Source of the DNA: Spirochaetes bacterium ADurb.BinA120 | Lineage (GTDB): Bacteria; Spirochaetota; UBA4802; UBA5368 | Direction: 5' to 3' | Length of the DNA stretch: 64,000 nucleotides | Assembly (NCBI GenBank): GCA_002069125.1 | Contig: MVZN01000006.1 | Span: 2,354-66,353 of the forward strand | Shown: piece by piece, positions 44,033 through 63,332 of the stretch | Numbering within the stretch: position 1 is the stretch's first letter | Layout: every line of letters starts with the position of its first letter | Position numbers and translations under genes: made by a program | Notes under the pieces: model-generated | Told to the model about the DNA's origin: nothing | Databases searched by the model: none | Seen by the model: only the letters and a program-made list of their open reading frames with translations

Positions 44033-44065
44033 TGCGTGTTCCCGATTGTATTTGCGAATTCAATA

Positions 44066-44103
44066 AAGATAGCACATTCGAACACATTGGTCAATAGTTC
44101 AAA
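44066..44103 (-). promoter_or_regulatory. Sigma70-type promoter of the tetR-RND operon with an overlapping imperfect inverted repeat (candidate TetR operator)
   Basis: Minus strand TTGACC-N17-TATCTT; imperfect IR TTGAACTATTG / CAATGTGTTCGA spans the -35 element. Confidence 0.6.
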
Positions 44104-44187
44104 TATTTAATTAATAAAATTTGTTTTTTAAAAAATATGCTTGGCCTATTTATTCATATTTATGATTTATAATATTGTAATTATTAA

Positions 44188-44307
44188 TGGATTTTCCAGA
44201 GGTTAAATTTTTAAGATTCATATAAATTGCAACTACTGGCAAATTAAGCGCTTGGGTTTTCCCGCCCGTCTTCGGCGGGCGGGAAAACCTAATTTTTAGA
44301 GATTGCC
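44188..44307 (+). repeat. Dispersed ~120 bp intergenic element, copy A (MITE/REP-like)
   Basis: Shares TTAAGAT..C.TAAATTG, GGCAAA.T.AGC.CT, a GC hairpin and the AGAGATTGCC end with copies B and C. Confidence 0.75.
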
Positions 44308-44441
44308 TAATGATTTATTTTGACAGCCCCCGGATTTGGATTGTCACGAGTTTCAATTTTTAGGGTCGTTCTCGGTCGAATGAATTTTACTCCCGCGGAC
44401 TTAAGGAGCATTTCTATTCACTGAAGGTAGGATGGAGGATT

Positions 44442-45554
44442 ATGAAGGGACTGGCGGACTTTTTCGGTTCAAGAAAAGCCATTATCGCGACCGGCTTTCT
44501 AATAGGCATGGGGGCCGCACTGCTGCAGAAATTGGGGAATCCCGCGAACATGGGCATCTGTGTGGCCTGCATGGAGCGCGATATTGCAGGGGCCCTGGGC
44601 TTTCACAGGGCGGCCGCGGCACAATACATCAGGCCCGAGATCATAGGCCTAATATTCGGTGCTCTTATCGCCGCTCTCTCTTTCGGGGAGTTCCGTGCCC
44701 GGTCCGGCTCGGCTCCCATGGTGCGCTTCGTACTCGGGTTCTTCGCCATGCTGGGGGCTCTGGTCTTCCTTGGCTGCCCCTGGCGCGCATTGCTGCGCCT
44801 TTCGGGAGGCGACGGAAACGCAATCGTCGGCCTTGCCGGGCTTGCCATCGGTGTCGCGATAGGGGTATTTTTTATAAAGAACGGTTACAGCCTCGGTGCG
44901 AGTAAAAAGACCCATACCTCCGCAGGCTGGATAATGCCGGTGATGATGATCGCCCTTATGCTGCTCCTGCTTGGGAATACCGTTTGGGGCGCCTCGAAAG
45001 CATTGCTGTATGCGGAGCCGGACAGCTTTGCGCCGTTTTTCAGCGCAAAGGGGCCGGGCTCCCAGCACGCTCCGGTTCTCATTTCACTTGGAATCGCCCT
45101 CGTCATCGGCTTCCTCGCGCAGCGCACCCGTTTTTGCACCATGGGGGCGCTCCGAGACGTCCTTCTTATTGGGGACATGCATCTGATGTGGGGCGTGGTA
45201 GCGCTCGTCCTGGGCGCGTTCGCGACCAATTACGCGTTCGGACAATTCAACCCCGGTTTTGCCGGTCAGCCGGTGGCGCATACCGCGCACACCTGGAATT
45301 TCGGCGGAATGGCGCTCTCGGGCCTCGCCTTCGCGCTTGCCGGGGGTTGCCCCGGAAGACAGCTCTTCCTTTCAGGGGAGGGCGATGGAGATGCCGCCAT
45401 CTTTGTGATGGGGATGATCGTCGGGGCCGCTTTCGCGCACAATTTCGCCGCGGCAAGCACGTCCGAAGGTCCCGGACTCTGGGGGCCGGCCTCGGTGATT
45501 GCGGGGCTTGTCGTGTGCCTTGTAATCGGTTTTACCATGCGCCAGAAGGCGTGA
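44442..45554 (+). CDS. yedE: YedE family putative selenium/sulfur transporter
   Basis: GNP.NMGIC.AC..RDIAGALG, RPEI.G, FLGCP.R, .RTRFC..G, GGCPGRQ. Confidence 0.9.
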   Translation: MKGLADFFGSRKAIIATGFLIGMGAALLQKLGNPANMGICVACMERDIAGALGFHRAAAAQYIRPEIIGLIFGALIAALSFGEFRARSGSAPMVRFVLGFFAMLGALVFLGCPWRALLRLSGGDGNAIVGLAGLAIGVAIGVFFIKNGYSLGASKKTHTSAGWIMPVMMIALMLLLLGNTVWGASKALLYAEPDSFAPFFSAKGPGSQHAPVLISLGIALVIGFLAQRTRFCTMGALRDVLLIGDMHLMWGVVALVLGAFATNYAFGQFNPGFAGQPVAHTAHTWNFGGMALSGLAFALAGGCPGRQLFLSGEGDGDAAIFVMGMIVGAAFAHNFAAASTSEGPGLWGPASVIAGLVVCLVIGFTMRQKA

Positions 45555-45569
45555 TCGAAGGAGGATTCT

Positions 45570-45785
45570 ATGGCGGATAAGCTGGATATGCGCGGGCTTT
45601 CGTGCCCGCAGCCGGTCTACGAGACGAAGAAAAAAATCGAGGCGATGGGATCGGGCGTGCTCGATGTGCTTGTGGACTCGGGCGCGGCGCGCGAGAACGT
45701 CACGCGGCTGGCCGAGAACAGGGGTTGGTCCGTCTCGGTAAAGGAAAAAGAGGGTGAATTCCTGTTAACCCTGAAGAGGCAATAA
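45570..45785 (+). CDS. TusA/YedF family sulfur carrier
   Basis: LDMRGLSCPQPV, VLVD..AARENV.R. Confidence 0.92.
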   Translation: MADKLDMRGLSCPQPVYETKKKIEAMGSGVLDVLVDSGAARENVTRLAENRGWSVSVKEKEGEFLLTLKRQ

Positions 45786-45838
45786 ATGGGCGCACTGGAA
45801 GGCGGACGCGTTCGCTTTCGGGGAGGCTTTTTATCGCC

Positions 45839-46996
45839 ATGATCTATCTCGATAACGCGGCGACCTCATTTCCCAAGCCAGCCCGGGTCGTCGATGCCAT
45901 GACCGAATTCGCGCGGGAGATCGGCGCAAACCCGGGGCGGTCGGGGCACCGCCTTTCGGTCGAGGCGGGTCGAACCATATACGATGCGCGAGAGGCTCTT
46001 GCCTCTCTCTTCAAAATCCGCGATCCGCTAAGGGTGATTTTTACCGCCAACGCAACCGTAGGGCTGAACCAGGCCTTGCTGGGCCTTCTGTCGGCCGGGG
46101 ATAGGGTCGTGACGAGCGGGATGGAGCATAATTCGGTGATGAGACCGCTTCGCTTCCTCGAGGCTTCCGGTATCCGCGTAGCGACCGTTCCATGCTCCTC
46201 TCAAGGCCTGCTCGACCCGGATGAACTGCGGCGAACACTTTCCGAGAGGACCGCGATGGTCGTCGTCAACCACGGCTCGAACGTCAATGGCTGTATTCAG
46301 CCAGTCCGCGCGCTGGGGGCCGCCGCGCGCGAGGCCGGGGCCCTCTTTCTTGTTGACGCGGCCCAGACGGCCGGTTGCGTGGAGATAGATATGGCGGAAG
46401 ACAACATCGATCTCCTGGCGTTTACCGGCCACAAGGCCCTGTACGGGCCGCAGGGAACTGGCGGGCTTGTCCTTGGGGGGAGGGTGCCGGTCGAGCGAAT
46501 GAGGCCTATAGTCTTCGGCGGAACCGGAAGCCGCTCAGAGTACGAGACTCAGCCCGATTTTCTGCCGGACCGCTACGAGAGCGGCACGCCCAACACCGTG
46601 GGCATTGCGGGGCTTCTGGAGGGCGTTCGCTTCATACTCGAAACCGGGGTTACGGCCATACGCCGCCGGGAGGATGCGCTTGCCGACGTGCTGACAGAGG
46701 GCCTTGCCGAGGTCAACGGCCTGCGCATTTTCTCCGGCTCTGGCGGCAGCCGTCTGCCGACGGTTTCCTTTACCGGAGATACGCTCCCGCCGGACGAGAT
46801 CGGGCTACGGCTCGACGAGGAATTTGGAGTTCTCTGCAGGGTGGGGCTTCACTGCAGCCCGGCGGCCCACAATACGCTGGGCAGCTTTCCGGACGGCACG
46901 GTTCGTTTAAGCGCGGGTTTGTTTACCACGGAGGAGGAGATCCGGGCGGCAATTGATGCGGTGCGCGTAATCGTAAGCGAAGGAGGCGCCCGGTGA
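45839..46996 (+). CDS. Class V aminotransferase, cysteine desulfurase/selenocysteine lyase family
   Basis: YLDNAATS.PKP, EHNSV.RP, VDAAQ, FTGHK (PLP Lys), R.GLHC.P.AH. Confidence 0.92.
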   Translation: MIYLDNAATSFPKPARVVDAMTEFAREIGANPGRSGHRLSVEAGRTIYDAREALASLFKIRDPLRVIFTANATVGLNQALLGLLSAGDRVVTSGMEHNSVMRPLRFLEASGIRVATVPCSSQGLLDPDELRRTLSERTAMVVVNHGSNVNGCIQPVRALGAAAREAGALFLVDAAQTAGCVEIDMAEDNIDLLAFTGHKALYGPQGTGGLVLGGRVPVERMRPIVFGGTGSRSEYETQPDFLPDRYESGTPNTVGIAGLLEGVRFILETGVTAIRRREDALADVLTEGLAEVNGLRIFSGSGGSRLPTVSFTGDTLPPDEIGLRLDEEFGVLCRVGLHCSPAAHNTLGSFPDGTVRLSAGLFTTEEEIRAAIDAVRVIVSEGGAR

Positions 46997-47217
46997 ATGA
47001 AGGACAATGCGTGGCGCTGTTCCATTCTACAAGCCTTGCGCTCCGGGGAGAGAAGCTGTGTCGGGCCGAGGGGATACCCGTAAAGCTGATCCCCGTTCCG
47101 CGCCGCTTAAGTTCGGACTGCGGCGTATGCCTGCGTTTCGCGGGAGCCTTCGAGGAGCGCGTGCGAGCCCTCTTCAATGAAAGGGCGCTCGAATTCGAAG
47201 ATATCGTGTGCCTGTAG
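46993..47217 (+). CDS. DUF3343 family putative Se/S carrier protein
   Basis: F.ST..AL..EK......LIPVPR.LSSDCG.CL. Confidence 0.85.
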   Translation: MNEGQCVALFHSTSLALRGEKLCRAEGIPVKLIPVPRRLSSDCGVCLRFAGAFEERVRALFNERALEFEDIVCL

Positions 47218-47282
47218 GCCTCCCGCCGGGTATTTTGGGGTTTTCCGTTCTCGAGGGTTTTTGCCCGGCCTTAAAAGGCGCT

Positions 47283-47600
47283 TCAGCCGGTCGAGTCGTC
47301 AATCCATTGCAGGTATGGAGCGTTCCCTTCCACGATAGGCAGTGCGATGATCTCCGGCACCTCGTATGGGTGTAGCGATTCTATGCGTTCCCGGAGCCGT
47401 CCGAAGAGTTCTCCTCGTGTTTTTATTATCATGAGGCATTCCTCATCCCTGCACAGCTCTCCTTTCCAGGTATAGAAAGACGATATTCCTCCGATTACGT
47501 TCGCGCACGCGGCCAGCCGGTCGGGGACAAGCGATTCGGCAATGGCGACCGCCACCTCTCTCGAAGGCGTGGTGCAGAAGATTACTATATGCTTTTCCAT
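47283..47600 (-). CDS. cutA: Divalent-cation tolerance protein CutA
   Basis: LAACAN, S.Y.WKG, E..MIIKT, HPYEVPEIIAL. Confidence 0.93.
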   Translation of the reverse strand: MEKHIVIFCTTPSREVAVAIAESLVPDRLAACANVIGGISSFYTWKGELCRDEECLMIIKTRGELFGRLRERIESLHPYEVPEIIALPIVEGNAPYLQWIDDSTG

Positions 47601-47734
47601 CGTGAGCCTCGAAATAATTGTTTACCGGCCCGTGCCGGGGGCTAAGACTATCCCTGCTTGAACGCGCAGTCAAGCCTTAGAAAGCGTCCAGCCGTGGACG
47701 AATGGATGGAGCTCGAGATGAGCGGGTGGGGCTT

Positions 47735-48913
47735 ATGATAAATAATTTGAAAAATCGTACCATGATCTTGGCGTCCATAATTCTGGTTTACTGCGCGCTT
47801 CCGGTGGGGGGAGGGGCGCAAAACAATGACTATTTCGTAATCGGCTCAAATACCGCGCAAAAGGTTCGCTGGGAGGTGAGCTCCAGCCATGGACCTGGCA
47901 ATTCGGGCCTTATGGCCCTCGACAGCGATCCGGAGAGCTCGTGGATGTCCGCGAGGTCCGACTCGGCGCAATGGCTGCAGGTCGATTTCGGCGCGAAGCG
48001 CCTGCTCACCAGAATAGTGGTGGTGCCGGGCTATAGGGACAACTACCGCATGCTCCGCTATTGCGTCGTGCAGTTCCTTCATAATGGCGAATGGTTCGAT
48101 TTCAAGCGCGTCGATTTCGGCGGAAAAGAGCGCAGGGGCGTATTCTCCAGGCTGTTAGGAGACCGCTCGGGGTCCGCCGACCGAGCAGTTGTGGAATTGG
48201 GGGGAGTGGATGCAAGTACCTTCCGGATTCTGGCGCCTCCCGACGCAATGGTCGACGGCAGGGCGGCGATAGCGGAGGTGGAGTGCTATGTCGGATCGAT
48301 CGCGTTGAGATATTTCGATGGGAGGCTTAAGGGGCTGTGCGTTCCCGTGAGAAACGCCCTTCTCCCTCCGAACGACGCGTCATATCCGAACGCACCACGA
48401 GGGTACAGGGGGGGCATTCATGCGGGACTGGATATCTATAATTCTTTCGCCGAGGGGAGCTACGAGCAGGTTCCGGTTGATTTCAGTACCCCTGTGTACG
48501 CGGCGGATGGAGGGACCGTCATCCGCGCGGACTGGAGCTACGAGCCGATGACGCCAAGCCAGTGGAGGGAACAATCCGAATATACCAGGAGCAATCCGCG
48601 CACATTCGTTCTTCGCTCTTTCGGCGGCAGACAGGTGTGGCTGGACCACGGCAACGGGGTCGTAACGACCTATAATCATCTGTCGGCCATCGACAGGAAG
48701 GTCGTACAGGGGGCCAGGGTATCCAGGGGGCAGCGGATTGGCCATGTCGGAAACTCCGGACTTTTCGGAGAGGCCGAAGGAAAGCGCTACGGCGCTCATC
48801 TGCATTTCGAGATATGGGTTGACGGCTTCTATCTGGGATACGGAATGACTGTCGAGGATGTTAGAAAATACTTCGGCTGGATTTTTCAGACGGCGGTCCA
48901 ACCCGGCGATTGA
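47735..48913 (+). CDS. M23 family peptidase with N-terminal discoidin (F5/8 type C) domain
   Basis: A.DSD..SSW...QWLQVDFG (discoidin); HAGLDIY, TTYNHL, GNSG, HLHFEI (M23). Confidence 0.85.
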   Translation: MINNLKNRTMILASIILVYCALPVGGGAQNNDYFVIGSNTAQKVRWEVSSSHGPGNSGLMALDSDPESSWMSARSDSAQWLQVDFGAKRLLTRIVVVPGYRDNYRMLRYCVVQFLHNGEWFDFKRVDFGGKERRGVFSRLLGDRSGSADRAVVELGGVDASTFRILAPPDAMVDGRAAIAEVECYVGSIALRYFDGRLKGLCVPVRNALLPPNDASYPNAPRGYRGGIHAGLDIYNSFAEGSYEQVPVDFSTPVYAADGGTVIRADWSYEPMTPSQWREQSEYTRSNPRTFVLRSFGGRQVWLDHGNGVVTTYNHLSAIDRKVVQGARVSRGQRIGHVGNSGLFGEAEGKRYGAHLHFEIWVDGFYLGYGMTVEDVRKYFGWIFQTAVQPGD

Positions 48914-49118
48914 TGCGGATGAGCCGGGCCGCCGTGGGAGTTTTTTCCTTATGGATTTACGCAAAATATATGATAAAAATGACAGGGAGCTTGCGCGGGG
49001 CAAGGGGCGCGAAGATTATATGCATGCGTTCTCTCCAGCCGCCCGGCTCGTTGAAGAGGCATTCGGTATGACGGCGCGTGGCGCATAGGGCATTACTATA
49101 TGGAGTACAGCGGATTCT

Positions 49119-49568
49119 ATGGAAAAGCTCAGCGAGTATACGAACGAGAAATTCATAAAAAGGCTAAGGGCCAGGAACAAGTACAAGGCGATCGAGGAGC
49201 TCGCGAGGCTTTTCGATGGCGCACAGGTTTGCTCCGATATAGACGAGCTGGTAACCGCCCTCGTCGAAAGGGAGAAGATCATGAGCACGGGGATAGGTTT
49301 CGGCCTGGCCATTCCTCACGCTAAGATCAAGTCGGTGAAGGATATCGCCTTCTCCATCGGAATATCGCGGGCCGGAATCGATTTCGATTCCATGGACGGC
49401 AAGCCCGTAAACCTCATCATCCTGGTCGCGGCAGGCGACCGGCAGCACAAGGACTACCTGACGCTCCTTTCCAGAATAATGTCCATCCTGAAGGACGAAA
49501 AAAGGCGGGCCGAGATCATCAATGCCGCCGGTCCCGGGGAAATAATGGAGATACTTTCAGTGGAATGA
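49119..49568 (+). CDS. PTS IIA (Fru/Ntr-type) domain protein
   Basis: ERE...STGIG.GLAIPHAK, DFDSMDGKPV.LI. Confidence 0.92.
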   Translation: MEKLSEYTNEKFIKRLRARNKYKAIEELARLFDGAQVCSDIDELVTALVEREKIMSTGIGFGLAIPHAKIKSVKDIAFSIGISRAGIDFDSMDGKPVNLIILVAAGDRQHKDYLTLLSRIMSILKDEKRRAEIINAAGPGEIMEILSVE

Positions 49569-51379
49569 TGTCGGGTAGAAGACGCATTAACTGGGCCGGG
49601 CTGTGGAAGGCGCAGCGGGGCTTGAGGGCCCGCTACACCAGCACCGACATTTCCAAATACATCTCTCATATCGTATTCTCGGTGGTCCTGGGGCTCTTCG
49701 CCGGCGCCGGAGCGGTCGCGTTTCATTCGATGCTGGAAGGGACACGCCATTTCTTCGAATTCTTCAATCTGAGGTCCTACCTGGGGGTGGATGTAAACCT
49801 GGTCTTCGTATTCCCGGTCGTAGGGGCTCTGATAGTGGCGGCCATGACGCGCTACCTGCCCGCGCTGGCCAGGGAACGCGATGTAACCAGCGTCATCAAG
49901 GCCGTGCTGCTTCGAAACGGATTTATACCTTTCAGGGTAACGCTCTTCCATTTTTTCGCTCCGATCATATCGATCGGTTCAGGGGCCCCTCTTGGCCCCG
50001 AGGGGCCGGCCGCAAAGATGGGTAGCGGCCTGGGTTCGCTCATGTCGCAGTTCTTTCGGCTCAACCAGCGTGAGATGCGAATGTACACGGTGGCAGGCGC
50101 CGGCGCGGCCATCGCGGCCGTGTTCAATGCGCCGATAGCCGGGGTCTTTTTCGGGATCGAGGTGATCCTATTGAACGACCTCAAGAACCAGGCGATGAGC
50201 GCGCTGGTAATCTCCTCCGTGGTCGCGGACGTGTTCTCCCGGGCGGTGCACGGGAACAAGCACGTGTTCAGGATACCCCAGTACGTTACCGGAGAAGTCG
50301 GCGAGTTCCCGTATTTCCTGATGCTGGCCATTCTGTGCGGCGTGGTCTCGCTCCTCTTCTTTCAGCTCCGCCGCGCATCCGGATTTCTTTTAACAAAAAA
50401 GCTCGGCCTGCGGAACGAATTTGTACGGCTGCTCCCGGTAGCCGCGCTTTTCGGAATAGCGCTTCTCCATTTCCACGAGCTCTATGGCATAGGATACAAT
50501 ACCATTAACGAGGTCCTAAACAGGCACCATTCGCTCGCGTTCGTACTGGCGCTCCTGTTTCTCAAGCTCGTATTCATGGCCCTGTTCCTGGAGGCCGGCT
50601 CCTACGGAGGGACCTTCGCGCCATCGCTTATGATCGGCGTTCTGATGGGCCACTCCTTCGCGCTCACGCTAAACTCCCTGTTCGCCCTGTCGCTCGACCC
50701 GGTGGTCTTCGCGCTGGTCGGAATGGGAGGGGTGCTCGCCGGAATCAACTCCATCCCTCTGACCTCCATCCTGCTGGTGTTCGAGGTGACTGGGGACTAT
50801 CACTTCATACTGCCGCTAATGTTCGTTTCCATTATATCCTATTTGGTGGTGATCTACGTAAACCGCGGGAGCACCTATGCGCTCGAACTGCTGAAGGAGG
50901 GGATCGATGTCTCCAGACGGGGGGAGATGGATCTTCTGGGCAAGATCAAGGTTAAAGAGCTGCGAAAGGCCGACTTCGACACGGTTAGCCATCGCACTCC
51001 GTTCGCGAAACTTTCCAAAATCCTTATGCACTCGACCTACGGCGATGTGTTCGTGCTGGATGACCGCAAGGAGCTCGCCGGCGTGATATCCCTTCGGCAG
51101 GTCAGGCAGGCCATCATGTCGAATGAGCTCACGGATCTATTGATCGCGGGGGACGTCATCGACGAGGTGCCGGTGGTTACGGAGGACGATCCCGTGTCGC
51201 TCGCCATGCAGAAAATCGAGGAATACGATCTGGAGACCATTCCGGTGTTGAAGTCGGAGAATGAGCGCATTGTGACGGGCGTGCTGACGCATCGCGATAT
51301 CATACAGGCCTATAACAGGCTTCTGGACGTGTGGGCTACCGACCAATTCCTGACGGACACGAGGCGCGAACGAGGCTGA
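49565..51379 (+). CDS. ClC chloride channel/antiporter family protein with CBS pair
   Basis: G.EGP (GPEGP), FNAPIAG.FFGIE, GG.FAP.L, PLTSILLVFE.TG; C-terminal CBS domains. Confidence 0.9.
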   Translation: MMSGRRRINWAGLWKAQRGLRARYTSTDISKYISHIVFSVVLGLFAGAGAVAFHSMLEGTRHFFEFFNLRSYLGVDVNLVFVFPVVGALIVAAMTRYLPALARERDVTSVIKAVLLRNGFIPFRVTLFHFFAPIISIGSGAPLGPEGPAAKMGSGLGSLMSQFFRLNQREMRMYTVAGAGAAIAAVFNAPIAGVFFGIEVILLNDLKNQAMSALVISSVVADVFSRAVHGNKHVFRIPQYVTGEVGEFPYFLMLAILCGVVSLLFFQLRRASGFLLTKKLGLRNEFVRLLPVAALFGIALLHFHELYGIGYNTINEVLNRHHSLAFVLALLFLKLVFMALFLEAGSYGGTFAPSLMIGVLMGHSFALTLNSLFALSLDPVVFALVGMGGVLAGINSIPLTSILLVFEVTGDYHFILPLMFVSIISYLVVIYVNRGSTYALELLKEGIDVSRRGEMDLLGKIKVKELRKADFDTVSHRTPFAKLSKILMHSTYGDVFVLDDRKELAGVISLRQVRQAIMSNELTDLLIAGDVIDEVPVVTEDDPVSLAMQKIEEYDLETIPVLKSENERIVTGVLTHRDIIQAYNRLLDVWATDQFLTDTRRERG

Positions 51380-51442
51380 CCCCGCGTTTTTCGGCATTGT
51401 ACTTGACTTTTATTCATCGTAAAAAGAATTAAAGCGACAAAA

Positions 51443-51556
51443 GGGAATCTCTAAAGATTAACTTTTAAGATCCCATAAATTGTAAAGTCGGCAAAATCAG
51501 CGCTGGCGCTTCCCCCGCCTCAGGCGGGCGAAAAATCTTGATAATCAGAGATTGCC
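51443..51556 (+). repeat. Dispersed intergenic element, copy B
   Basis: GGGAATCTCT ... AGAGATTGCC terminal inverted repeat (9/10), flanked by AAAA on both sides; CCCGCC-TCA-GGCGGG hairpin. Confidence 0.8.
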
Positions 51557-51581
51557 AAAATATTGAGCTGTGAGGTGTTCC

Positions 51582-54050
51582 ATGACGGAGCGCGGATATT
51601 TATTCAAGGATATAGAATCCAAATGGCGGAAGCGCTGGGAGGATGACAGGGTATTCGAATCGCGGCGCGACCCCGACAGAAAAAAGTATTATCTGCTGGA
51701 GATGTTTCCCTATCCGTCGGGCCGGCTTCACATGGGCCATGTACGAAATTATTCCATAGGCGATCTCATGGCGCGCTTCAAGCGCATGCGCGGATACAAC
51801 GTACTGCACCCCATCGGCTGGGACGCGTTCGGGCTTCCGGCCGAGAACGCGGCGATAAAGGAGGGCATCCCGCCGTTCCGCTGGACGCTCGACAATATCG
51901 GCCACATGAAGGAGCAGTTCGGCAAGCTGGGGGTGTCATACGACTGGACGAGGGAGTTTGCCACCTGCGACCCCAATTATTACCGCTGGAACCAGTGGGT
52001 TTTTCTGAAGATGTACGAGAGGGGGCTGGCGTATAAAAAGAAGGCCTCGGTGAACTGGTGCCCTTCGTGCAATACGGTGCTCGCCAACGAACAGGTGGTG
52101 GACGGGCTGTGCTGGCGCTGCGAGTCGAACGTTTTGCAGAAGGAGCTGGAGCAATGGTTCTTCAAGATTACCGATTACGCCGAGGACCTGCTCAAAGGGC
52201 ATGATGAGCTTGGCGACGGCTGGCCCGAGCGGGTCGTGACCATGCAGCGCAACTGGATAGGGCGTTCGACCGGCCTTACGGTTAAATTCAGGCTCGAGAG
52301 CGGGGAGGATTTCCCCATCTATACGACCAGGCCGGATACGGTATTCGGCGTTACCTTTATGGTCATTGCGCCCGAACATTCACTTCTGGACCGAGTCGGG
52401 GACCCCAGGGTCCGCGAATTCATCGAGCGCTTCAAGTCGCAGCCGCTGGTCGACCGGCTTTCGGACGAAAAGGAAAAGGAAGGCGTGGACACCGGCCTCA
52501 AGGTGATCAATCCCTTTAATGGCGACATCGTCCCGCTTTACGTCGGCAACTTCGTGCTGATGGAGTACGGTACAGGGGCGATCATGGCGGTTCCGGCGCA
52601 CGACACGCGCGACTTCGCCTTCGCGAAGAAATACGGGATTCCGGTAAAGCTCGTAATCGACCGCCCCGGCGAATCCCTGTCGGTATCGACCATGGAGGAC
52701 GCCTATGTGGAGGACGGCGTATGCGTGAACTCCGGTCCCTTCGACGGCCTTGGAAACCGCGAGGCCATGTCGAAGATCTCGGACTACGCCGAGGAAAAGG
52801 GCTTTGGAAAACGCGCCGTAACCTACCGCCTTCGGGACTGGCTGATCTCCCGCCAGCGCTACTGGGGCTGCCCCATTCCCGTGGTCTATTGCGATAAATG
52901 CGGGCCCCAGCCGGTAAAGGAGGAGGAGCTGCCGGTTGTACTTCCCACCGATGTGGAGTTCCGGGGCGATTCGCGTTCCCCTCTCATCTTTATGGATGAT
53001 TTTATCAAGACGAGCTGTCCCAAATGCGGGGGCGCCGCGAGGCGGGAGACGGACACCATGGACACCTTTGTGGACTCGTCGTGGTACTTCGCCAAATTCA
53101 CCTCGCCGAAATCCAGCGGCATGTTCGACCAAGAGGAGGTTAACTACTGGATGCCGGTGGACCAGTACATCGGCGGCATAGAGCATGCGTGTTTGCACCT
53201 CCTGTACGCGCGCTTTTTCAACATGGTGCTAAACGACCTGGGGGTCGTAAACTGCCGCGAGCCCTTCACCAGGCTCCTCACCCAGGGGATGGTGATAAAG
53301 GAAGGCGCCAAGATGAGCAAGTCCAAGGGGAACATAGTGGACCCCGATAAAATAATCGAGGAATACGGCGCGGACACGGCGCGGCTTTTCATGCTATTCG
53401 CCTCTCCGCCGGAGAAAGACCTCGACTGGTCCGACAAGGGCGTTGAGGGCTGTTCCCGTTTTATTGGACGGGTATGGCGCGTAGTTTCCAAATACGCCGC
53501 CGACTATACGGCCGAGCGTTGCGCCGCGGAAGCGGCCCTTTCGGACGAGCTTCGGGCGCTGCGCATAGAGCTCCACCGCACCATGAAGATCGTTACCCAC
53601 GATATCGAGGAACGCCTGCAATACAATACCGCCATAGCCCGATTGATGGAGCTTGTAAACGCGCTCTACCAGCTTCCCGACTCCGAGGCGGCCACGCCGG
53701 ACGGCAAAAAAGTCCTTTCCGAGGTCTTCGACAGCCTGATTCCAATGCTCTCACCCTTCGTACCCCATGTCGCCGAGGAGATGTGGGCCATGCTTGGGCA
53801 CAAGGAGCTCCTTGTAAATCAACCCTGGCCCGCCTACATAGAGGCGCTTTCGGTCAGAGATGAGATCGAGATCGTCTTCCAGGTAAACGGCAAGAACCGC
53901 TCCAAGGCCCCGGTCGCGCCGGACATCTCGAAGGATGAGATGGAAAGGCTTGCGCTCGCGGACCAGCGAATCGGCGATTTTATCGCGGGAAAACAGGTTG
54001 TTAAGGTAATAGTCGTTCCGGGGAAGCTCGTCAATATCGTCGTTAAATAA
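51582..54050 (+). CDS. leuS: Leucine--tRNA ligase
   Basis: EMFPYPSG.LHMGH, WLISRQRYWG.PIP, DTMDTFVDSSWY, YIGGIEHA, KMSKSKGN. Confidence 0.98.
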   Translation: MTERGYLFKDIESKWRKRWEDDRVFESRRDPDRKKYYLLEMFPYPSGRLHMGHVRNYSIGDLMARFKRMRGYNVLHPIGWDAFGLPAENAAIKEGIPPFRWTLDNIGHMKEQFGKLGVSYDWTREFATCDPNYYRWNQWVFLKMYERGLAYKKKASVNWCPSCNTVLANEQVVDGLCWRCESNVLQKELEQWFFKITDYAEDLLKGHDELGDGWPERVVTMQRNWIGRSTGLTVKFRLESGEDFPIYTTRPDTVFGVTFMVIAPEHSLLDRVGDPRVREFIERFKSQPLVDRLSDEKEKEGVDTGLKVINPFNGDIVPLYVGNFVLMEYGTGAIMAVPAHDTRDFAFAKKYGIPVKLVIDRPGESLSVSTMEDAYVEDGVCVNSGPFDGLGNREAMSKISDYAEEKGFGKRAVTYRLRDWLISRQRYWGCPIPVVYCDKCGPQPVKEEELPVVLPTDVEFRGDSRSPLIFMDDFIKTSCPKCGGAARRETDTMDTFVDSSWYFAKFTSPKSSGMFDQEEVNYWMPVDQYIGGIEHACLHLLYARFFNMVLNDLGVVNCREPFTRLLTQGMVIKEGAKMSKSKGNIVDPDKIIEEYGADTARLFMLFASPPEKDLDWSDKGVEGCSRFIGRVWRVVSKYAADYTAERCAAEAALSDELRALRIELHRTMKIVTHDIEERLQYNTAIARLMELVNALYQLPDSEAATPDGKKVLSEVFDSLIPMLSPFVPHVAEEMWAMLGHKELLVNQPWPAYIEALSVRDEIEIVFQVNGKNRSKAPVAPDISKDEMERLALADQRIGDFIAGKQVVKVIVVPGKLVNIVVK

Positions 54051-54071
54051 ACGGATAAGGCCTCACCAGCG

Positions 54072-54099
54072 AAAAGGCCGGGTTAATCCCGGCTTTTTT
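54072..54099 (+). terminator. Intrinsic terminator of leuS
   Basis: AAAAGGCCGGG-TTAAT-CCCGGCTTTTT. Confidence 0.8.
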
Positions 54100-54111
54100 A
54101 TGAATAAGGAG

Positions 54112-54139
54112 TTGCGTTATTTGCGCGCAAATATATTAT
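54112..54139 (+). promoter_or_regulatory. Candidate promoter with a perfect 16-bp palindromic operator for the GH57-like/uxu operon
   Basis: TTGCGT-N16-TATTAT, where the spacer is exactly the palindrome TATTTGCGCGCAAATA (54118-54133). Confidence 0.55.
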
Positions 54140-54204
54140 TTTCGATATATGAACGAGCGCAATAAGGGTCCGTTACCTTGTCGTTCGCCAATCGGAGTGT
54201 CAGA

Positions 54205-56742: not shown

Positions 56743-56757
56743 TGGGGAGTGACCGAT

Positions 56758-57612
56758 ATGGAGATTCCTTTTCGTGTGGGCCTCGACGGTAAGGTCGCGG
56801 TAGTGACCGGCGGGGCGGGCGTACTCTGCGGCTTGTTCGCCTCGGCGCTCGCCGAGTGCGGGGCACGGGTGGCGGTATTGGACCTTAAGGGGGAGGCCGC
56901 GGCCCGAAAGGCCCGGGAGATAGGCTCCGGGGGCGGCACGGCTATAGGCGTGGAGGCCGACGTGCTCGACGCGGGGAGCCTTCGCAAGGCCGCGGATAGG
57001 GTGAGGGCGGAGTTCGGGAGATGCGATATTCTCGTCAACGGGGCCGGGGGGAATCATCCCAGGGGAACGACGGAGCATGACTGGCTGGAAGCCGGATATG
57101 TCCTCTCCGGGGCGGAAGGAGGGCGCTCCTTCTTCGATCTCGACAGGGAGGGTGTGGAGTTCGTCTTCGGGCTCAATTTTACGGGTACGCTGTTGACAAC
57201 ACAGGAGTTCGCCCGCGACATGCTGGGGCGGGGCGGGACGGTGCTAAACATGTCATCGATGAACGCCTTTCGCCCGCTTACGAGAATTCCGGCCTACAGC
57301 GCTGCCAAGGCCGCGGTGAACAATTTTACCCAATGGCTTGCGGTGTACCTGTCGAGGCATGCCATTAGGGTCAACGCGATAGCCCCTGGCTTCTTTCTGA
57401 CAGACCAAAACCGAAGCCTGCTTGTCGGGCCAGACGGCACGCATACTCCGCGGGCCGGCAGGATCATTGCCCATACGCCCTTGGGCCGTTTCGGCGTACC
57501 CGAAGAGCTGGTGGGAACCCTCCTCTGGCTGGCGGACGAACGATCATCCGGATTTGTCTCCGGGGCGGTGGTCCCGGTGGACGGCGGCTTTTCGGCCTAT
57601 TCCGGCGTGTAG
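56758..57612 (+). CDS. uxuB: D-mannonate oxidoreductase (SDR)
   Basis: TGGAGVL, NGAGGNHP, SSMNAFRPLTRIPAYSAAKAA..NFTQWLAV, IIAHTP.GRFG.PEEL. Confidence 0.88.
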   Translation: MEIPFRVGLDGKVAVVTGGAGVLCGLFASALAECGARVAVLDLKGEAAARKAREIGSGGGTAIGVEADVLDAGSLRKAADRVRAEFGRCDILVNGAGGNHPRGTTEHDWLEAGYVLSGAEGGRSFFDLDREGVEFVFGLNFTGTLLTTQEFARDMLGRGGTVLNMSSMNAFRPLTRIPAYSAAKAAVNNFTQWLAVYLSRHAIRVNAIAPGFFLTDQNRSLLVGPDGTHTPRAGRIIAHTPLGRFGVPEELVGTLLWLADERSSGFVSGAVVPVDGGFSAYSGV

Positions 57613-57623
57613 GAGGCTATGGC

Positions 57624-58670
57624 ATGATAATGACCTTCAGGTGGTACGGAGAGGGCGATCCGATCCCGCTCCGCCATATCCGCCAGATCCCCGTGGTAAA
57701 AGGGATCGTGTCCGCCCTGTACGACGTTCCCGTGGGGGAGATATGGCCCCTCGAAAGGATGGCTACGCTTCAACGAAGGATACTCGATGAGGGACTGGCG
57801 CTTTCGGTGATAGAGAGCATACCGGTGCATGAGGATATCAAGCTCGGCAGGCCGACCAGGGACCGTTATATAGACGCGTATCGTCAAAGCATTCGCAATA
57901 TGGGCGCTCTCGGCATTCCCATCCTATGTTATAACTTCATGCCGGTCTTCGACTGGATGCGCACGGACCTTTCGATGGAGCTTCCGGACGGCTCTACTGC
58001 GCTCTCATACGATCATGAGGCCATAGAGGCGATCGACATTAAGGACGGAATTCCCGATCTTCCGGGCTGGGCTACTGCATACTCGGCGGAAGAGCTTCGT
58101 TCCCTTCTCGACGCCTATGCCGGGGTCGGCACGGAGGACCTGTGGAGAAATCTGAATTATTTTTTAAGGGCGGTGGTGCCGGTTGCCGAAGAGAGCGGCG
58201 TGCGAATGGGAATCCATCCGGACGATCCGCCATGGCCTGTTTTCGGGCTTCCGCGGATCATCACCGACGACGCCGCGCTTGCGCGTCTGACCGAAATCGT
58301 CGACAGCCCTTCGAACGGCATAAGCTTCTGTACTGGCTCGCTCGGTCCAAACGCCGGGATCGATCTAATAAAAAGCCTGGGGCGCTTTGTCCGCAAGGGG
58401 CGGGTTCCCTTCGTACATGCGCGTAATATCCGGCGCACCGGGGAACGCGCCTTCCACGAAACGGCCCATTGCTCGGAATCGGGGGACGTGGACATATACA
58501 GGATCATCCGCGAGCTTGCGGACGCGGGCTTCGATGGGGCCATTCGCCCCGATCATGGCAGGATGATATGGGATGAAAGGGGGCGCCCCGGTTATGGCCT
58601 CTACGACAGGGCCCTCGGCGCCATGTATCTGGCGGGCCTCTGGGAGGCCGTGGGAAGATCGTCTAAATGA
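57624..58670 (+). CDS. uxuA: Mannonate dehydratase
   Basis: MTFRWYG, ES.PVHE.IK.G, CYNFMPVFDW.RT, IHPDDPP, RPDHGR, GY..YDRALG. Confidence 0.96.
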   Translation: MIMTFRWYGEGDPIPLRHIRQIPVVKGIVSALYDVPVGEIWPLERMATLQRRILDEGLALSVIESIPVHEDIKLGRPTRDRYIDAYRQSIRNMGALGIPILCYNFMPVFDWMRTDLSMELPDGSTALSYDHEAIEAIDIKDGIPDLPGWATAYSAEELRSLLDAYAGVGTEDLWRNLNYFLRAVVPVAEESGVRMGIHPDDPPWPVFGLPRIITDDAALARLTEIVDSPSNGISFCTGSLGPNAGIDLIKSLGRFVRKGRVPFVHARNIRRTGERAFHETAHCSESGDVDIYRIIRELADAGFDGAIRPDHGRMIWDERGRPGYGLYDRALGAMYLAGLWEAVGRSSK

Positions 58671-58715
58671 ATCCGTATAAAACGCGCATCAGGATAGAGG
58701 TCGGAGGTTGCCGAG

Positions 58716-59756
58716 ATGGGGATGAAGGGCGAACGGGCCAGGCGCCTTGAAGACATAGCGCGCCGCTGCGGGGTTTCAATAAGCTCCGTGTCACGCGCTC
58801 TGAATAACAGGCCGGGGGTATCGGCCGAAACGCGCAGACGGGTTCTCTCGGTGGCCGGGGAGCAGGGCTTCCGGCCGCGCGCCCGAAAGCGCCACCTCTC
58901 TCGTGCAATGCTTGACCTCCTGTTGGTGGTCCCCGAACGGGAGGAGCTTTCGGCGAACCCATTTTTGAACATTTCGGAGCTGGTCGGTGCGATCGGCGAG
59001 GCCTTTCGTGACGAAAAGAAAAGGGTGGAGGTCGTCCCGGTCGGCGATTTTGCTGATTCGATTGGGGATGGGGCCCCAGGGGTGGACGGCGTGCTCTTCG
59101 CCTATAGGAGCGTGGGCGAAAAAGAGCGGAAAAGGCTCATGGATACGAAAATACCGTACGTGTTCATCAGCCGCGTTATTCCCGGCGAAAATTATGTTTC
59201 ATGCAATTATTATAAAAGCATGCTCGGACTCACGCGAATGATGATAGAGTCCGGGCACAGGCGCCTGGGATACCTTGGCAACCGGGGGAACCCGAACGAT
59301 ATCGACAGGCTTCGGGGATTCAAAACGGCCGTCACCGAGTCGGGGGTGGAGCATTCGGTTTACGCCCGGGTGGATACTATATTCGGGGTAGATGAAAGGG
59401 TCGCCGGCGTATTTACGGATGGCCGGTGCGACGCGGTGTTATGTTTCAACGACTTCATGGCGATCAGGCTGATCGGGAATCTGCGAGATCTTGGCTGCGC
59501 GGTTCCCGACGACATGTCCGTTACCGGTTTCGACGATTCGCCTCTGCGAAGGGCGGCAGCCCCCTTCCTCACCACGGTGCGCCAGCCGGCCTTTGAAATG
59601 GCGTTTTTGGCATCCCGATGGCTGCGCGACAATATACTGAACAAGACCAATCGCCGGCTCTGCATCGAGGTCGAGGGGGAAGTCGTATTCGGGGAGAGCA
59701 CTCTTATGCGGGGCGGAATCAGAAACCGGCATCGTGAGCATACGAGAACACCATGA
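58716..59756 (+). CDS. LacI family transcriptional regulator
   Basis: DIARRCGVS.SSVSRALN, FNDFMA, D.SVTGFDD, LTTV.QP. Confidence 0.93.
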   Translation: MGMKGERARRLEDIARRCGVSISSVSRALNNRPGVSAETRRRVLSVAGEQGFRPRARKRHLSRAMLDLLLVVPEREELSANPFLNISELVGAIGEAFRDEKKRVEVVPVGDFADSIGDGAPGVDGVLFAYRSVGEKERKRLMDTKIPYVFISRVIPGENYVSCNYYKSMLGLTRMMIESGHRRLGYLGNRGNPNDIDRLRGFKTAVTESGVEHSVYARVDTIFGVDERVAGVFTDGRCDAVLCFNDFMAIRLIGNLRDLGCAVPDDMSVTGFDDSPLRRAAAPFLTTVRQPAFEMAFLASRWLRDNILNKTNRRLCIEVEGEVVFGESTLMRGGIRNRHREHTRTP

Positions 59757-60123
59757 ACAGGCCGAGGGTCGCGCGAAGGGCAGCGTCGATAAGGATGAGC
59801 CGCCGCGCCGAGGCGGGACGTAGTTCATCAACGGTCGAAAGAAAGAGTGAACGCACCCGATCGGCGTATAAAAGGATGAACGGTCCGGTAAAGACCATGA
59901 CAACGCCGAGCCAGAAGACGATACATCCCACGCTCGAGCCGCCGGCGCAGGTAAGCGGCAGACCGGCGACAATGAGCATGGCGCCATGGAGGAAAAAAAG
60001 CCGATGGCTTATCCAGCGGCGCCAGAGGGCCAGCGACTTCGCCGGCACGATGGCCTCAATGCATCCCATTAAAACGAGAAGGCCGCCGAATATGAATATG
60101 TATAGATCCAGCACGCTATCCAC
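59719..60123 (-). CDS. Small membrane protein (DUF2065-like)
   Basis: Four hydrophobic segments; G..E..P...W pattern. Confidence 0.6.
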   Translation of the reverse strand: MDSVLDLYIFIFGGLLVLMGCIEAIVPAKSLALWRRWISHRLFFLHGAMLIVAGLPLTCAGGSSVGCIVFWLGVVMVFTGPFILLYADRVRSLFLSTVDELRPASARRLILIDAALRATLGLFMVFSYAHDAGF

Positions 60124-60299
60124 CGCCGTTTCGTGCGCTTATGGGTGGGGGCCTGGACATGGAAATCAAGCGAAAATAATGAGCTCGGGCGGGAAAATTC
60201 GTTGGTTTTTTTTATTGACATATATTTCTTTAAGAAAAACGAACCGACAGCGGTTCGATCCCGCCCATCGAGGGCGGCATATCATGAATTGAGGCAAAT

Positions 60300-62135
60300 A
60301 TGGCAATTGAGAAACGAGAGATAGTAAAATTCGCCAAGGCGAGAAAAAACCACGAGCTGGACGATGCCCCGGCGCCGAACCTTTACCGGGATATTTTTCC
60401 GTACGACAAGGTATGCCGCATCCCGTTCGGAAGCGAGATGATCCCGCTTGTGCCGGCCGCGAAATTCCGTCTTTCCGACACCACCTTCCGCGATGGCCAG
60501 CAGGCCCGCCCGCCGTATACGGTGGAGCAGATAGGGACCATCTTCGACTTCCTGCATCGTCTGTCCGGGTCGAAGGGGCTTGTAACCCACTCGGAGTTTT
60601 TTCTATACACCAAAAAGGACCGCGAGGCCGTTGAGCGCTGCCGCTCGAAGGGCTATTCCTTCCCGCGCATCACCTCGTGGATCAGGGCGAACAAAAAGGA
60701 TTTCGAGCTTGTCAAGGAGATGGGTATAGAGGAGACGGGCATCCTCACCTCCGTGTCGGATTATCACATCTTCCTCAAGCTGAACAAGACCCGCCGTGAG
60801 GCCATGGAGGAATACCTGGAGATAGTTTACGCCGCCCTCGAAAACGATATAATCCCGCGCCTGCACTTCGAGGACATCACCAGGGCGGATTTCTATGGCT
60901 TCGTCATTCCGTTCGCCCAGCAGCTTGTGCGGATAATGGAAAAGAGCAAGATCCCGGTCAAGATACGGCTGTGCGACACCATGGGCTACGGCGTGACCTA
61001 TCCGATGGCCGAGCTTCCGCGCTCGGTGCCCAGGATGATCCGCGCCATGATCGACGAGGCGGGAATGCCGGGGGAGCTCCTCGAGTGGCACGGCCATAAC
61101 GACTTCCATCGCGGATTTACAAACGCGACCTACGCGTGGATGTTCGGCTGCGAGACGGTCAACACTACGCTTCTGGGCTTCGGCGAGCGCACGGGCAATA
61201 CGCCGCTCGAGGCCATGGTCGTGGAATATATGTCGCTTACGGGCGATGACGAGGGAATCGACCTGACCGCGATCACAGACATGGCCCATTACTTCGAATC
61301 GATCGGTTTCAGGATTCCGGAGAACTATCCCTTTGTCGGGGCGGACTTCAACGTAACGCGGGCCGGCATTCACGTGGACGGGCTCATCAAGAACGAGGAG
61401 ATTTACAATATCTTTAACACCGAAAAGCTTTTAAAGCGGCCCATTGCCGTGGCCATCACCGACAAGAGCGGTACGGCCGGGATCTCACGCTGGCTTAACA
61501 GCCACCTCAGGCTGGACGGCGAGAACGCCATCGATAAAAAACACCCCGGCGTTGCGGGAATGCACAGGGAGATCCTGAGGCTTTACGAGACCGGGCGGGA
61601 AACCTCGATATCGAACGAGGAGCTGGCCAAGCTGGCCCGAAAGCACCTGCCTGAATTTTTCGTCTCCGAATTCGACCGGATCAAATTCCGTGAGAAAAAA
61701 TACGCCTTTTCGCTGCTCGATCGCTTCCTGGAAAACCCGAAAATTAAATCCATGCTACCGGCGGAACAGGAGGTCCTTCTTCAGGAGCTGGTCGATGAAT
61801 TCCCCTTCGTGTCCTTCGCTTATGTAGTCGATATCAATGGGGATAAGGTGACCAAACACGTAACGCACCTTTCGGACAGGTCCAAATACGACCGGCACCT
61901 CATCGACAGGAATTACGCGGACCGCGACTGGTTTATAAACGTAGTCAAGACCGGCAAGATTTACGTGTCCGACATCTTCACCTCGAAGATTACCGGAAGC
62001 CTTATGATAACGGTTTCGGGGCCGATAAGCGACGATAACGACAATCTGGTGGGCGTGCTCGGTCTGGATATACGCTTTGAGGATGTGGCCAAAATAGATG
62101 AGATGGAAGTGAACGGAAACCGGGAAGAAGCTTAA
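60300..62135 (+). CDS. Re-citrate synthase (DRE-TIM/HMGL-like) with C-terminal Cache/PDC-like domain
   Basis: PNLYRDIFPY, DTTFRDGQQA.PPY, EFFLYT.KD, HFEDITRADFYGF, EWHGHNDF, NVTRAGIH.DG match recalled clostridial Re-citrate synthase; C-terminal RDWF..V.TG..YVS....ITVS.P. Confidence 0.85.
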   Translation: MAIEKREIVKFAKARKNHELDDAPAPNLYRDIFPYDKVCRIPFGSEMIPLVPAAKFRLSDTTFRDGQQARPPYTVEQIGTIFDFLHRLSGSKGLVTHSEFFLYTKKDREAVERCRSKGYSFPRITSWIRANKKDFELVKEMGIEETGILTSVSDYHIFLKLNKTRREAMEEYLEIVYAALENDIIPRLHFEDITRADFYGFVIPFAQQLVRIMEKSKIPVKIRLCDTMGYGVTYPMAELPRSVPRMIRAMIDEAGMPGELLEWHGHNDFHRGFTNATYAWMFGCETVNTTLLGFGERTGNTPLEAMVVEYMSLTGDDEGIDLTAITDMAHYFESIGFRIPENYPFVGADFNVTRAGIHVDGLIKNEEIYNIFNTEKLLKRPIAVAITDKSGTAGISRWLNSHLRLDGENAIDKKHPGVAGMHREILRLYETGRETSISNEELAKLARKHLPEFFVSEFDRIKFREKKYAFSLLDRFLENPKIKSMLPAEQEVLLQELVDEFPFVSFAYVVDINGDKVTKHVTHLSDRSKYDRHLIDRNYADRDWFINVVKTGKIYVSDIFTSKITGSLMITVSGPISDDNDNLVGVLGLDIRFEDVAKIDEMEVNGNREEA

Positions 62136-62212
62136 GCGAAGCGGCGAATAACCGACCCGGAAGGGTCTTCGCGCACGGCGCGAGGCGGTGTTTGAGGACG
62201 GAGGCCGCCGGC

Positions 62213-62449
62213 CTATATGTATTGTTCGATGGTGCCGACGAGGGCGTCTTCCAGGTCCTCGAGGCAGGATAACCTCTCCTCGAAGGAAAGCGGTTCGAAG
62301 AGCTGAGATACAGGGTTCCCGACCACATCCGGCGACTGGTCCGTCACCTGGACAGATATCGTCGCGGAAACCGTAACTATCGTCCCGTTCAGCCGCCGCC
62401 GGGTCCGTATGGATAAAAGGGTGCTCAACGTCGCTCCGCCCCGATACAT
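62213..62449 (-). CDS. Possible small hypothetical protein
   Basis: The ORF fills the gap after the hydrolase gene and overlaps its stop; amphipathic acidic C-terminus; no recognisable family. Confidence 0.3.
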   Translation of the reverse strand: MYRGGATLSTLLSIRTRRRLNGTIVTVSATISVQVTDQSPDVVGNPVSQLFEPLSFEERLSCLEDLEDALVGTIEQYI

Positions 62450-63204
62450 CCATGGTTATGTGAAGCGATCCAGGCGGGGATTTCGGCCTTGAAAAGCCGC
62501 AGGTCCCCGTCGCGGGTCAGGTTGTGGTCCCCGTCGGGGATGAGGACGATACTCCGCTCGACCGTAAGGGCGTTCCGTAAAAATTCGGTATTGTTGACGT
62601 CCACCACGCCGTCCCGCGCGCCGTGGATGACCAGTGTCGGTACGGCCACAGAGCGGACGGCGGCATCCATATCGAGGCCCAGAGCCTCCCTGAAAAAACC
62701 ATTTCCTATCGGGACCCCGTCGATGACGGTCGTCCCCCCTTCGGAGAGTCCGGAGACATCGATCCCGCCCGACAGGCGGCCTATCAGGCCCGCAAGGTCG
62801 GCCGGTGTGGCGATGAGCGTGAGAGATCGCAGGGGCTCCGGCCGGGATGCGGCGTAGAGGAGGGAGATCACGCCTCCCATGCTCGAGCCGATCAGGTGCA
62901 AGTGGGTCAGTCCGCGCTCCAGCAGGTAGGATACGGCGGATTGGAGGTCCTGGACCTCCCTCATTATGGAGAATTCGCGGAAGCTTTCGGGCATTCCCGA
63001 TATGAACGAGAAGTCGAATGTGAGGAGCGTGAATTCGGACCGGACGATATCCGCCGCAAGGTTCACTATTTTATACGCATCCTTGGAGGAAAAGAGTCCG
63101 TGGCAGAAGATGACTCCTCCCCTGGGTGTTGCCCCGGGTGAGTACAGGCGTCCTCCAAGACGGTCGCCCCGATCGTTATGGATTTCGATTTCTTCGATTT
63201 TCAT
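62425..63204 (-). CDS. Alpha/beta hydrolase
   Basis: CHG, GSSMGG nucleophile elbow, IHG.RD, GDH. Confidence 0.88.
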   Translation of the reverse strand: MKIEEIEIHNDRGDRLGGRLYSPGATPRGGVIFCHGLFSSKDAYKIVNLAADIVRSEFTLLTFDFSFISGMPESFREFSIMREVQDLQSAVSYLLERGLTHLHLIGSSMGGVISLLYAASRPEPLRSLTLIATPADLAGLIGRLSGGIDVSGLSEGGTTVIDGVPIGNGFFREALGLDMDAAVRSVAVPTLVIHGARDGVVDVNNTEFLRNALTVERSIVLIPDGDHNLTRDGDLRLFKAEIPAWIASHNHGCIGAERR

Positions 63205-63214
63205 GTTGATTTAA

Positions 63215-63332
63215 TGCAAGCTCTTATAATTCGTTTTTCCCGCCCGCCTTCGGCAGGCGGAAAAACCTTAGTGCTGAATTTGCCGGTTCTTGCAATTTAT
63301 GGGAATCTTAAACTAAATTTTTAGAAATTCCC
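63215..63332 (-). repeat. Dispersed intergenic element, copy C (inverted relative to A and B)
   Basis: Reverse complement GGGAATTTCTAAAAATTTAGTTTAAGATTCCCATAAATTGCAAGAACCGGCAAATTCAGCACT...GGCGGGCGGGAAAAA...AAGAGCTTGCA aligns with A and B. Confidence 0.78.

Follow-up and report, generated by a model that had tools for sequence, protein, structure and literature searches.

Three intergenic repeats in a spirochaete genome are very probably old copies of a non-autonomous transposable element with IS5-family ends

In a 64,000-nucleotide stretch of the genome of Spirochaetes bacterium ADurb.BinA120 (hereafter the window; contig C6:2354-66353), three copies of a short intergenic repeat, A, B and C, lie upstream of, and in the same orientation as, three different genes. 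Copy A (44189-44307, + strand; 117 bits with nhmmer) ends 134 nt before the start codon of yedE, copy B (51443-51556, + strand, 114 bp; 76 bits) 26 nt before that of leuS (ATG at 51583), and copy C (63215-63332, − strand, 118 bp; 107 bits) 10 nt before that of an alpha/beta hydrolase (ATG at 63204). The original prediction, made from the sequence alone, had described them as diverged copies of one element and, in agreement, they align end to end with a mean column identity of 79%. Its limits for B and C and its gene distances for A and C were correct; A starts one base inside the predicted 44188, and the distance from B to leuS had been given as 25 nt, within one base of our value. As predicted, the two ends of the element are imperfect inverted repeats of each other and B has AAAA on both sides (51439-51442 and 51557-51560). 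Copy A has TAAT on both flanks (44185-44188 and 44308-44311), and the flanks of C, TAAA and TTAA, match imperfectly. Each copy also has a central GC-rich hairpin. In A (44252-44292, + strand), 19 pairs enclose a TTC loop (CTTCGG) and are followed by TTTTT; in C (63236-63264, − strand), the loop is GAA (CGAAGG), inverted relative to A, as had been noticed together with the conserved pairing; and in B (51510-51532, + strand), the hairpin has decayed to CCCCGCC-TCA-GGCGGG with no T-run behind it. The left terminal repeat of A has decayed to GGATTTTCCAGAGG and its right repeat, AGAGATTGCC, is intact. Copy A is old, and all three copies are among the older, more diverged members of their family.

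A profile built from copies A, B and C was searched with nhmmer (one iteration) against the window's own genome, a metagenome-assembled genome (MAG) of 3.51 Mb in 216 contigs (57% G+C, 96% complete). This search returned 65 copies or fragments that do not overlap (lowest E-value, 1e-39), 46 of which cover at least 90 model positions, and excluded chance similarity in AT-rich DNA as the source of the three-copy alignment. With several copies located at the ends of contigs, the true copy number is probably higher. All 31 occurrences of the hairpin core GCCCGCC-NNN-GGCGGGC in the genome are inside a copy. An alignment of 41 copies was used to read the anatomy of the repeat. The unit is 114-121 bp long, non-coding and far too short for a transposase gene, which places it within the ∼50-800 bp of miniature transposable elements with inverted repeats (MITEs). 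It is bounded by 18-bp terminal inverted repeats (GGGAACCTCTAAAAATTA / GGCAACCTCTAATAATTA), against the 10-15 bp at least that are expected of a MITE, and 79% of the cells in these repeats are paired across 31 copies. From left to right, the unit consists of the 18-bp left end GGGAACCTCTAAAAATTA; the same sequence again, inverted and degenerate, at positions ∼18-34, recognised because AAGATTCCC complements GGGAATCTT (this is the 'TTAAGATTCCCATAAATTG' / 'AAGATTCCC' block of the original prediction); a conserved interior, GTAACTACTGGCA(T/A)A(C/T)TCAGGACTTAGG; a GC hairpin of 16-19 bp, which in the family reads GGTTTTCCCGCCCGCC-GAA/TTC-GGCGGGCGGGAAAACC; and the right terminal repeat TAATTATTAGAGGTTGCC. 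In a second subfamily, this interior lies between other ends, GGGAAGTCCTAAAAA and GGGTAGTCACAAAAACTC, and changes at one end of these two terminal-repeat types are matched by changes at the other.

Copies are often adjacent or nested (C9:61102-61343, C11:63628-63869, C4:88946-89205, C17:15456-15707, C39:1918-2145 and 6220-6496, and C112:753-1053), and at two sites a copy of the second subfamily abuts a first-subfamily copy that is missing its first ∼25 bases. These arrays suggest insertion into or beside earlier copies. We also observed 'mini-elements' of 34-36 bp that consist of two terminal repeats back to back and nothing else, at ∼113313-113347 on contig C3 of the source genome and at three loci retrieved in the wider searches described below (L061 2778-2813 and 4750-4785, L069 2510-2544 and L034 1684-1717). 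Those of L061 have matching 4-bp flanks (AGTA and TAAA). Mini-elements would be very small for MITEs, if they are mobile, and the left 34 bp of the 120-bp unit resembles one.

Two signs of transposition that the original prediction had proposed to look for, target-site duplications and empty sites, were both found. Most intact copies in the source genome are flanked by 4-bp direct repeats (TTAA, TTAT, ATAT, ATAA, TAAA, TTGA, TTCA, TTTA, CTAA or CATG), to which the TAAT of copy A and the AAAA of copy B belong. Duplications of the same length flank most intact copies in two genomes from other families of the same order, namely G024 (ACAA, ATAA, AGAT, TTTT, TTAA and TATT, among 20 fetched copies) and G352 (ATAA and TGAA, two copies). 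Copy B has the leuS ribosome-binding site on one side and, on the other, a promoter-like box that is conserved in the genus (TTGACT...AAAAAGAAT), and in five same-genus genomes the leuS upstream region lacks the element. At these empty sites, GAAAGCGAYRATAT and the ribosome-binding site GAGG come immediately after the conserved box TTGACTTTTA..TAAAAAGAAT; in the source genome, the 114-bp unit plus a second AAAA lie between the box and GAAAGCGAYRATAT/GAGG, so that copy B puts 118 bp between the box and the ribosome-binding site. The locus of copy A is too diverged in relatives to define an empty site, and no relative has the unit there.

The distribution of the family is patchy. An element with this interior was found in three of the 401 sampled genomes of the phylum (the source genome, G024 and G352), which represent three families of one order, and additionally in two MAGs labelled 'uncultured Leptospirales'; it was absent from all seven same-genus and all five same-family genomes searched. 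G024 contains 368 terminal-repeat matches and ∼180 copies, and its copies are 90-96% identical to the consensus. Near-identical copies scattered in this way point to a family that was transferred horizontally and then amplified in bursts. The ends of the unit are distributed more widely than its interior. The 18-mer end was scanned against one genome per species (596 Gb); since we estimate from the size of this collection that ∼70 single matches would occur by chance, only genomes with several matches were used. Among the matches listed, the same 17-18-bp ends together with 4-bp duplications bound short elements with unrelated interiors in other phyla (L022-L139, e.g. L044 497-625, L090 328-470 and L042 1797-1917). 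Their hosts include the Desulfobacterales MAG Bpl_7, which has dozens of copies, Methylococcaceae, Methylobacter, Methylomonas aurea, Rickettsiales MAGs, Syntrophaceae, Bacteroidales and others. Judged by these shared ends, MITEs seem to have arisen repeatedly from one IS5 lineage in different phyla.

The assignment to IS5 comes from a search for DDE transposases in the genomes with several end matches. In a Methylobacter MAG, a 1344-bp element with the ends GGGCATCTCTAATAATT and GGGAACCTCTATTAATT and a TTAA duplication contains an IS5-type gene that has decayed (two stop codons and a frameshift), the pieces of which match DUF772, DDE_Tnp_1 (PF01609) and the IS5 transposase model NF033581. When this gene was read through its stops, the resulting 368-aa query retrieved thousands of relatives, among them intact proteins of 368 aa labelled 'IS5 family transposases' (78-90% identity). 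Ten genomic places from metagenomes that encode the proteins P0012 and P0016 (L233-L242) are complete elements of 1346-1349 bp, with GGGCATCTCTAATAATT or GGGTATCTCTAATAATT as one end and GGGAACCTCTATTAATT as the opposite end. Eight of the ten have clean duplications (TTAA, TTAT, TTTA or ATAA), and several identical copies are often present per assembly. Two transposase fragments also lie near such ends. G024 retains 57 aa from the C-terminus of an IS5 transposase (NF033581, E = 1e-7), ending ∼150 bp before an exact GGGAACCTCTAAAAATT end, and a Rickettsiales MAG has GGGCACTTCTAAAAATT next to an N-terminal IS5 piece that is truncated at the end of its contig. The intact elements are near-identical to the MITE at their ends and have duplications of the same length and spectrum. 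By sequence comparison, the MITE therefore belongs, in ends and duplication length, with a living IS5 lineage, and we infer that an IS5-family transposase mobilises the unit in trans.

Several other candidates for the mobilising enzyme were rejected. The prediction that the window holds no cognate transposase was correct and extends to the whole assembly. The only PF01609 element in the source genome, a 515-aa DDE_Tnp_1 transposase at a contig end (C65:12170-13999), has ends (CCTAAAACAAGCG...) unrelated to those of the MITE, and the intact IS5 of Methylomonas aurea likewise has unrelated ends. Long pairs of terminal repeats (L045, L061 and L071), considered as the limits of an autonomous element, enclose ordinary host genes, and the open reading frames beside unpaired terminal repeats at 118 loci are all host genes, such as carA, sucC and asd. 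In the plasmid collection, the terminal-repeat palindrome gave one 18-bp match, upstream of aph(3')-IIIa in pCCK411, which we judged to be due to chance. No GIY-YIG frame was found in repeat-bounded elements of 275-320 bp or in the fetched loci.

Taken together, we consider it highly probable that A, B and C are old, diverged copies of a non-autonomous MITE with IS5-family ends, probably moved by an IS5-family transposase. The family has the hallmarks of a MITE, i.e. small non-coding units, terminal repeats, target-site duplications, dispersed intergenic copies, an empty site and ends in common with autonomous elements; a matching transposase gene in the host genome, which would mark dependence on an IS5 partner there, was not found in the assembly, and the autonomous elements sit in other genomes. 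Several observations weigh against this interpretation. Copy C and a few other copies lack perfect duplications, and the duplications are looser than the YTAR usually quoted for IS5. The IS5 model NF033581 has no match in the source assembly, itself a 96%-complete MAG in 216 contigs. The intact IS elements come from other organisms and differ from the MITE at 2-3 of 17 end positions; an intact element with exactly the ends of the MITE was not recovered among the genomes searched. Finally, the MITE and the IS remnant of G024 have no significant similarity beyond the terminal repeat, a comparison that also gave no support to an origin of the MITE by internal deletion. In the mechanism that we propose on the basis of IS5 family properties, a DDE transposase supplied in trans would bind both ends of the unit and insert it at an A/T-rich 4-bp target, which would be duplicated. 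From its distribution, the family would have entered the lineage horizontally, amplified and then been stranded, as suggested by the assembly having no matching transposase; the copies in the source genome are orphans in this sense. They would be passengers in gene spacers and not a regulatory system, with copy B now probably situated inside the leuS leader. The family appears to be undescribed in the literature searched, where the terminal-repeat string gave only unrelated primer matches, but of an ordinary selfish-DNA kind.

The original prediction had left a choice between a MITE, a repetitive extragenic palindromic (REP)-like unit and a dispersed structured leader RNA. The duplications, the empty site and the IS ends favour the first, and the other two fared poorly. 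If the unit were a leader or small RNA, transcribed with the downstream gene and regulating it, then one would expect A, B and C to lie upstream of a gene and share its direction, as they do at distances of 10-134 nt, and B necessarily belongs to the leuS leader provided that the conserved box is the promoter. The three copies do point the same way as yedE, leuS and the hydrolase gene, but a bias of this kind is absent from the genome. A rough gene prediction (3038 genes, 89% coding) places all 46 of the longer copies between genes; in spacers between tandem genes, six are co-oriented with the genes and 12 anti-oriented (P = 0.24), and a further 13 are in divergent and four in convergent spacers. 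As orientation is unbiased genome-wide, the co-orientation in the window is a small-sample effect (n = 3). The occurrence of copies in divergent, convergent and tandem spacers alike also argues against a leader, as do downstream genes that are unrelated to one another and same-genus relatives in which these genes lack the unit. Compared with shuffled sequence, the units fold much better (z of −2.8 to −8.5), and their stems contain compensated changes, as an RNA would require, but both strands fold about equally well, and the terminal repeats and target duplications already explain the dispersal. A query of the 64-kb window with the Rfam covariance models gave no match to a described RNA family at or above the gathering score. 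A leader RNA is therefore highly improbable. Barely credible is a unit resembling REPs or bacterial interspersed mosaic elements, spread by a REP-associated tyrosine transposase (RAYT) of the Y1 type acting on single-stranded hairpin DNA. Its GC-rich hairpin core, the adjacent or nested arrays of some copies and four Y1_Tnp-type (IS200/RAYT-like) genes in the genome (C44:23221-23532, C31:13862-14134, C42:1466-1690 and C190:513-737) are in its favour. However, these four genes are unrelated to the MITE, and no copy or hairpin core lies within 1.5 kb of any of them. Moreover, the 18-bp terminal inverted repeats and 4-bp duplications seen here are both absent from REPs, the ends match IS5-family elements, and copy orientation has no relation to GC skew. 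In the source genome neither GC skew nor gene-strand bias is related to copy orientation, and contigs C4, C11 and C15 of G024 each hold both orientations, so orientation set by replication was also rejected.

Further observations bear on whether the central hairpin has a function of its own. Its stem is paired in 89% of cells across 31 copies, with seven pairs changed on both sides. Among the 20 young copies of G024, there are 17 compensated pair changes compared with seven broken and seven wobble pairs, and we estimate that independent mutation at ∼5% divergence would give ∼0.3 compensated changes. Most young copies have GAA as the 3-nt loop and older ones TTC; a GAA/TTC flip also separates L218 and L227, which are otherwise sister copies. 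Template switching between the arms of an inverted repeat is known to homogenise the arms and to invert the spacer (PMC8604942, PMC8794818). Because arm copying and spacer inversion are both its known products, template switching during replication is most likely the cause of stem compensation and loop flips, and this is the least certain step of our model; selection for the stem among amplifying copies is the alternative. On the + strand of the element, a TTTTT run behind the stem makes copy A, some other copies of the first subfamily (GGGAACCTCT...) and most copies of the second (GGGAAGTCCT...) terminator-like. The MITE interior could have been recruited as an orientation-dependent terminator or mRNA-stabilising hairpin, as in SPRITE, Correia and ERIC, with selection keeping the stem. 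This is consistent with the occurrence of one interior on two terminal-repeat types and with the strong excess of compensated changes. Against this, the T-run varies among copies and is replaced by TTATTA in the common variant, B and C are not terminator-like, there is no orientation bias relative to genes, and template switching gives both compensation and loop flips without any function (PMC8604942). We regard recruitment as quite improbable. A broader form, in which the interior (GTAACTACTGG... and the GC hairpin) is a selected, portable module and not filler, is unlikely. It is compatible with an interior that is found on at least two interchangeable sets of IS5-type ends and has crossed between spirochaete families, and with the same excess of compensated stem changes. 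If true, an extruded hairpin would be needed for propagation, either as a landing site for the transposase or a host factor or as a single-strand intermediate; alternatively, the host would gain an orientation-dependent terminator or stabiliser. In a wider version, the IS5 lineage with GGGAACCTCTAAAAATT ends may be a cross-phylum 'MITE factory' that packages local hairpins again and again. A sigma-54 promoter (TGGCA-N-GC in the interior) was also considered; the GG-N10-GC spacing is present in copy A, but the family as a whole does not keep the −12 GC.

Some features of the flanking spacers were noted in the same alignments. The box upstream of leuS (TTGACTTTTAYC..TAAAAAGAAT, 51397-51429 in the window) is kept in all seven same-genus genomes aligned and is probably the leuS promoter. 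One of these relatives (L199, G004:C111) has a different hairpin insert of ∼100 bp (...CTTACCCTCCGACGAAGGCGGGAGAAAAC...CCCAGTTATGCAACAAC...) upstream of leuS, only a few bases from the site equivalent to that of B, and a CCAGTTATGC(A/G)AC motif also occurs beside a composite copy in the source genome (C3:113236-113330). This insert may represent a second repeat family, and the leuS spacer may be an insertion hot spot. Upstream of yedE (∼44050-44100 in the window), the motif AATAGCACATT(A/C)GAACA.ATT.GTCAATAGTTCAAAT is conserved in the genus beside a divergent gene of 192 aa and is possibly an operator. In the stretch aligned opposite copy A, the relatives have TTTTTAATTATTGATTAATCA in common.

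The identification of the family as a MITE has practical consequences. With ∼65 spacers holding the unit, upstream hairpins or 'conserved motifs' in this genome should not be taken for regulatory elements. The shared IS5 end sequence is a handle for tracing one transposase lineage and its horizontal transfer across phyla, since MITEs marked by these ends, with unrelated interiors, occur in Spirochaetota, Desulfobacterales, Methylococcaceae, Rickettsiales and other groups. In addition, the many young copies offer natural material for measuring how the arms of bacterial palindromes are homogenised and their loops inverted.

The closest known systems are the IS5-derived MITEs of Pseudomonas syringae (MITEPsy1, with ISPsy2; PMC3189936) and Porphyromonas gingivalis (PMC4596501). 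Like these, the family described here is small and non-coding, has IS5-type terminal repeats and short A/T-rich duplications, is present in many intergenic copies and would depend on a transposase in trans. It differs from them in its terminal-repeat sequence, its interior and its host lineage (uncultured spirochaetes of the order Leptospirales), in the lack of a same-genome partner, and in that the same ends surround unrelated interiors in other phyla. Leptospirales have been reported to be very rich in MITEs, and MITEs to be mostly genus-specific (PMC11602168); this family spans three spirochaete families and is absent from the sampled congeners. When the related autonomous elements (1.35 kb, with a single DDE_Tnp_1 open reading frame and an N-terminal DUF772) are compared with the IS5 group of the IS5 family (E. 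coli IS5; NF033581, transpos_IS5_4), the ends of both begin with GG and the 4-bp duplications are centred on TA or AT. Unlike the IS5 group, the element in the window has no gene, and its targets are looser than YTAR, including also ACAA, AGAT, TTTT and AAAA. The Correia elements (CREE) of Neisseria and the ERIC/IRU elements of enterobacteria are likewise intergenic hairpin MITEs of 100-150 bp, often near gene starts, and can be co-transcribed (PMC3184786, PMC10969869). However, Correia elements duplicate TA and fold end to end, whereas in the family described here only the ends and the central stem pair.

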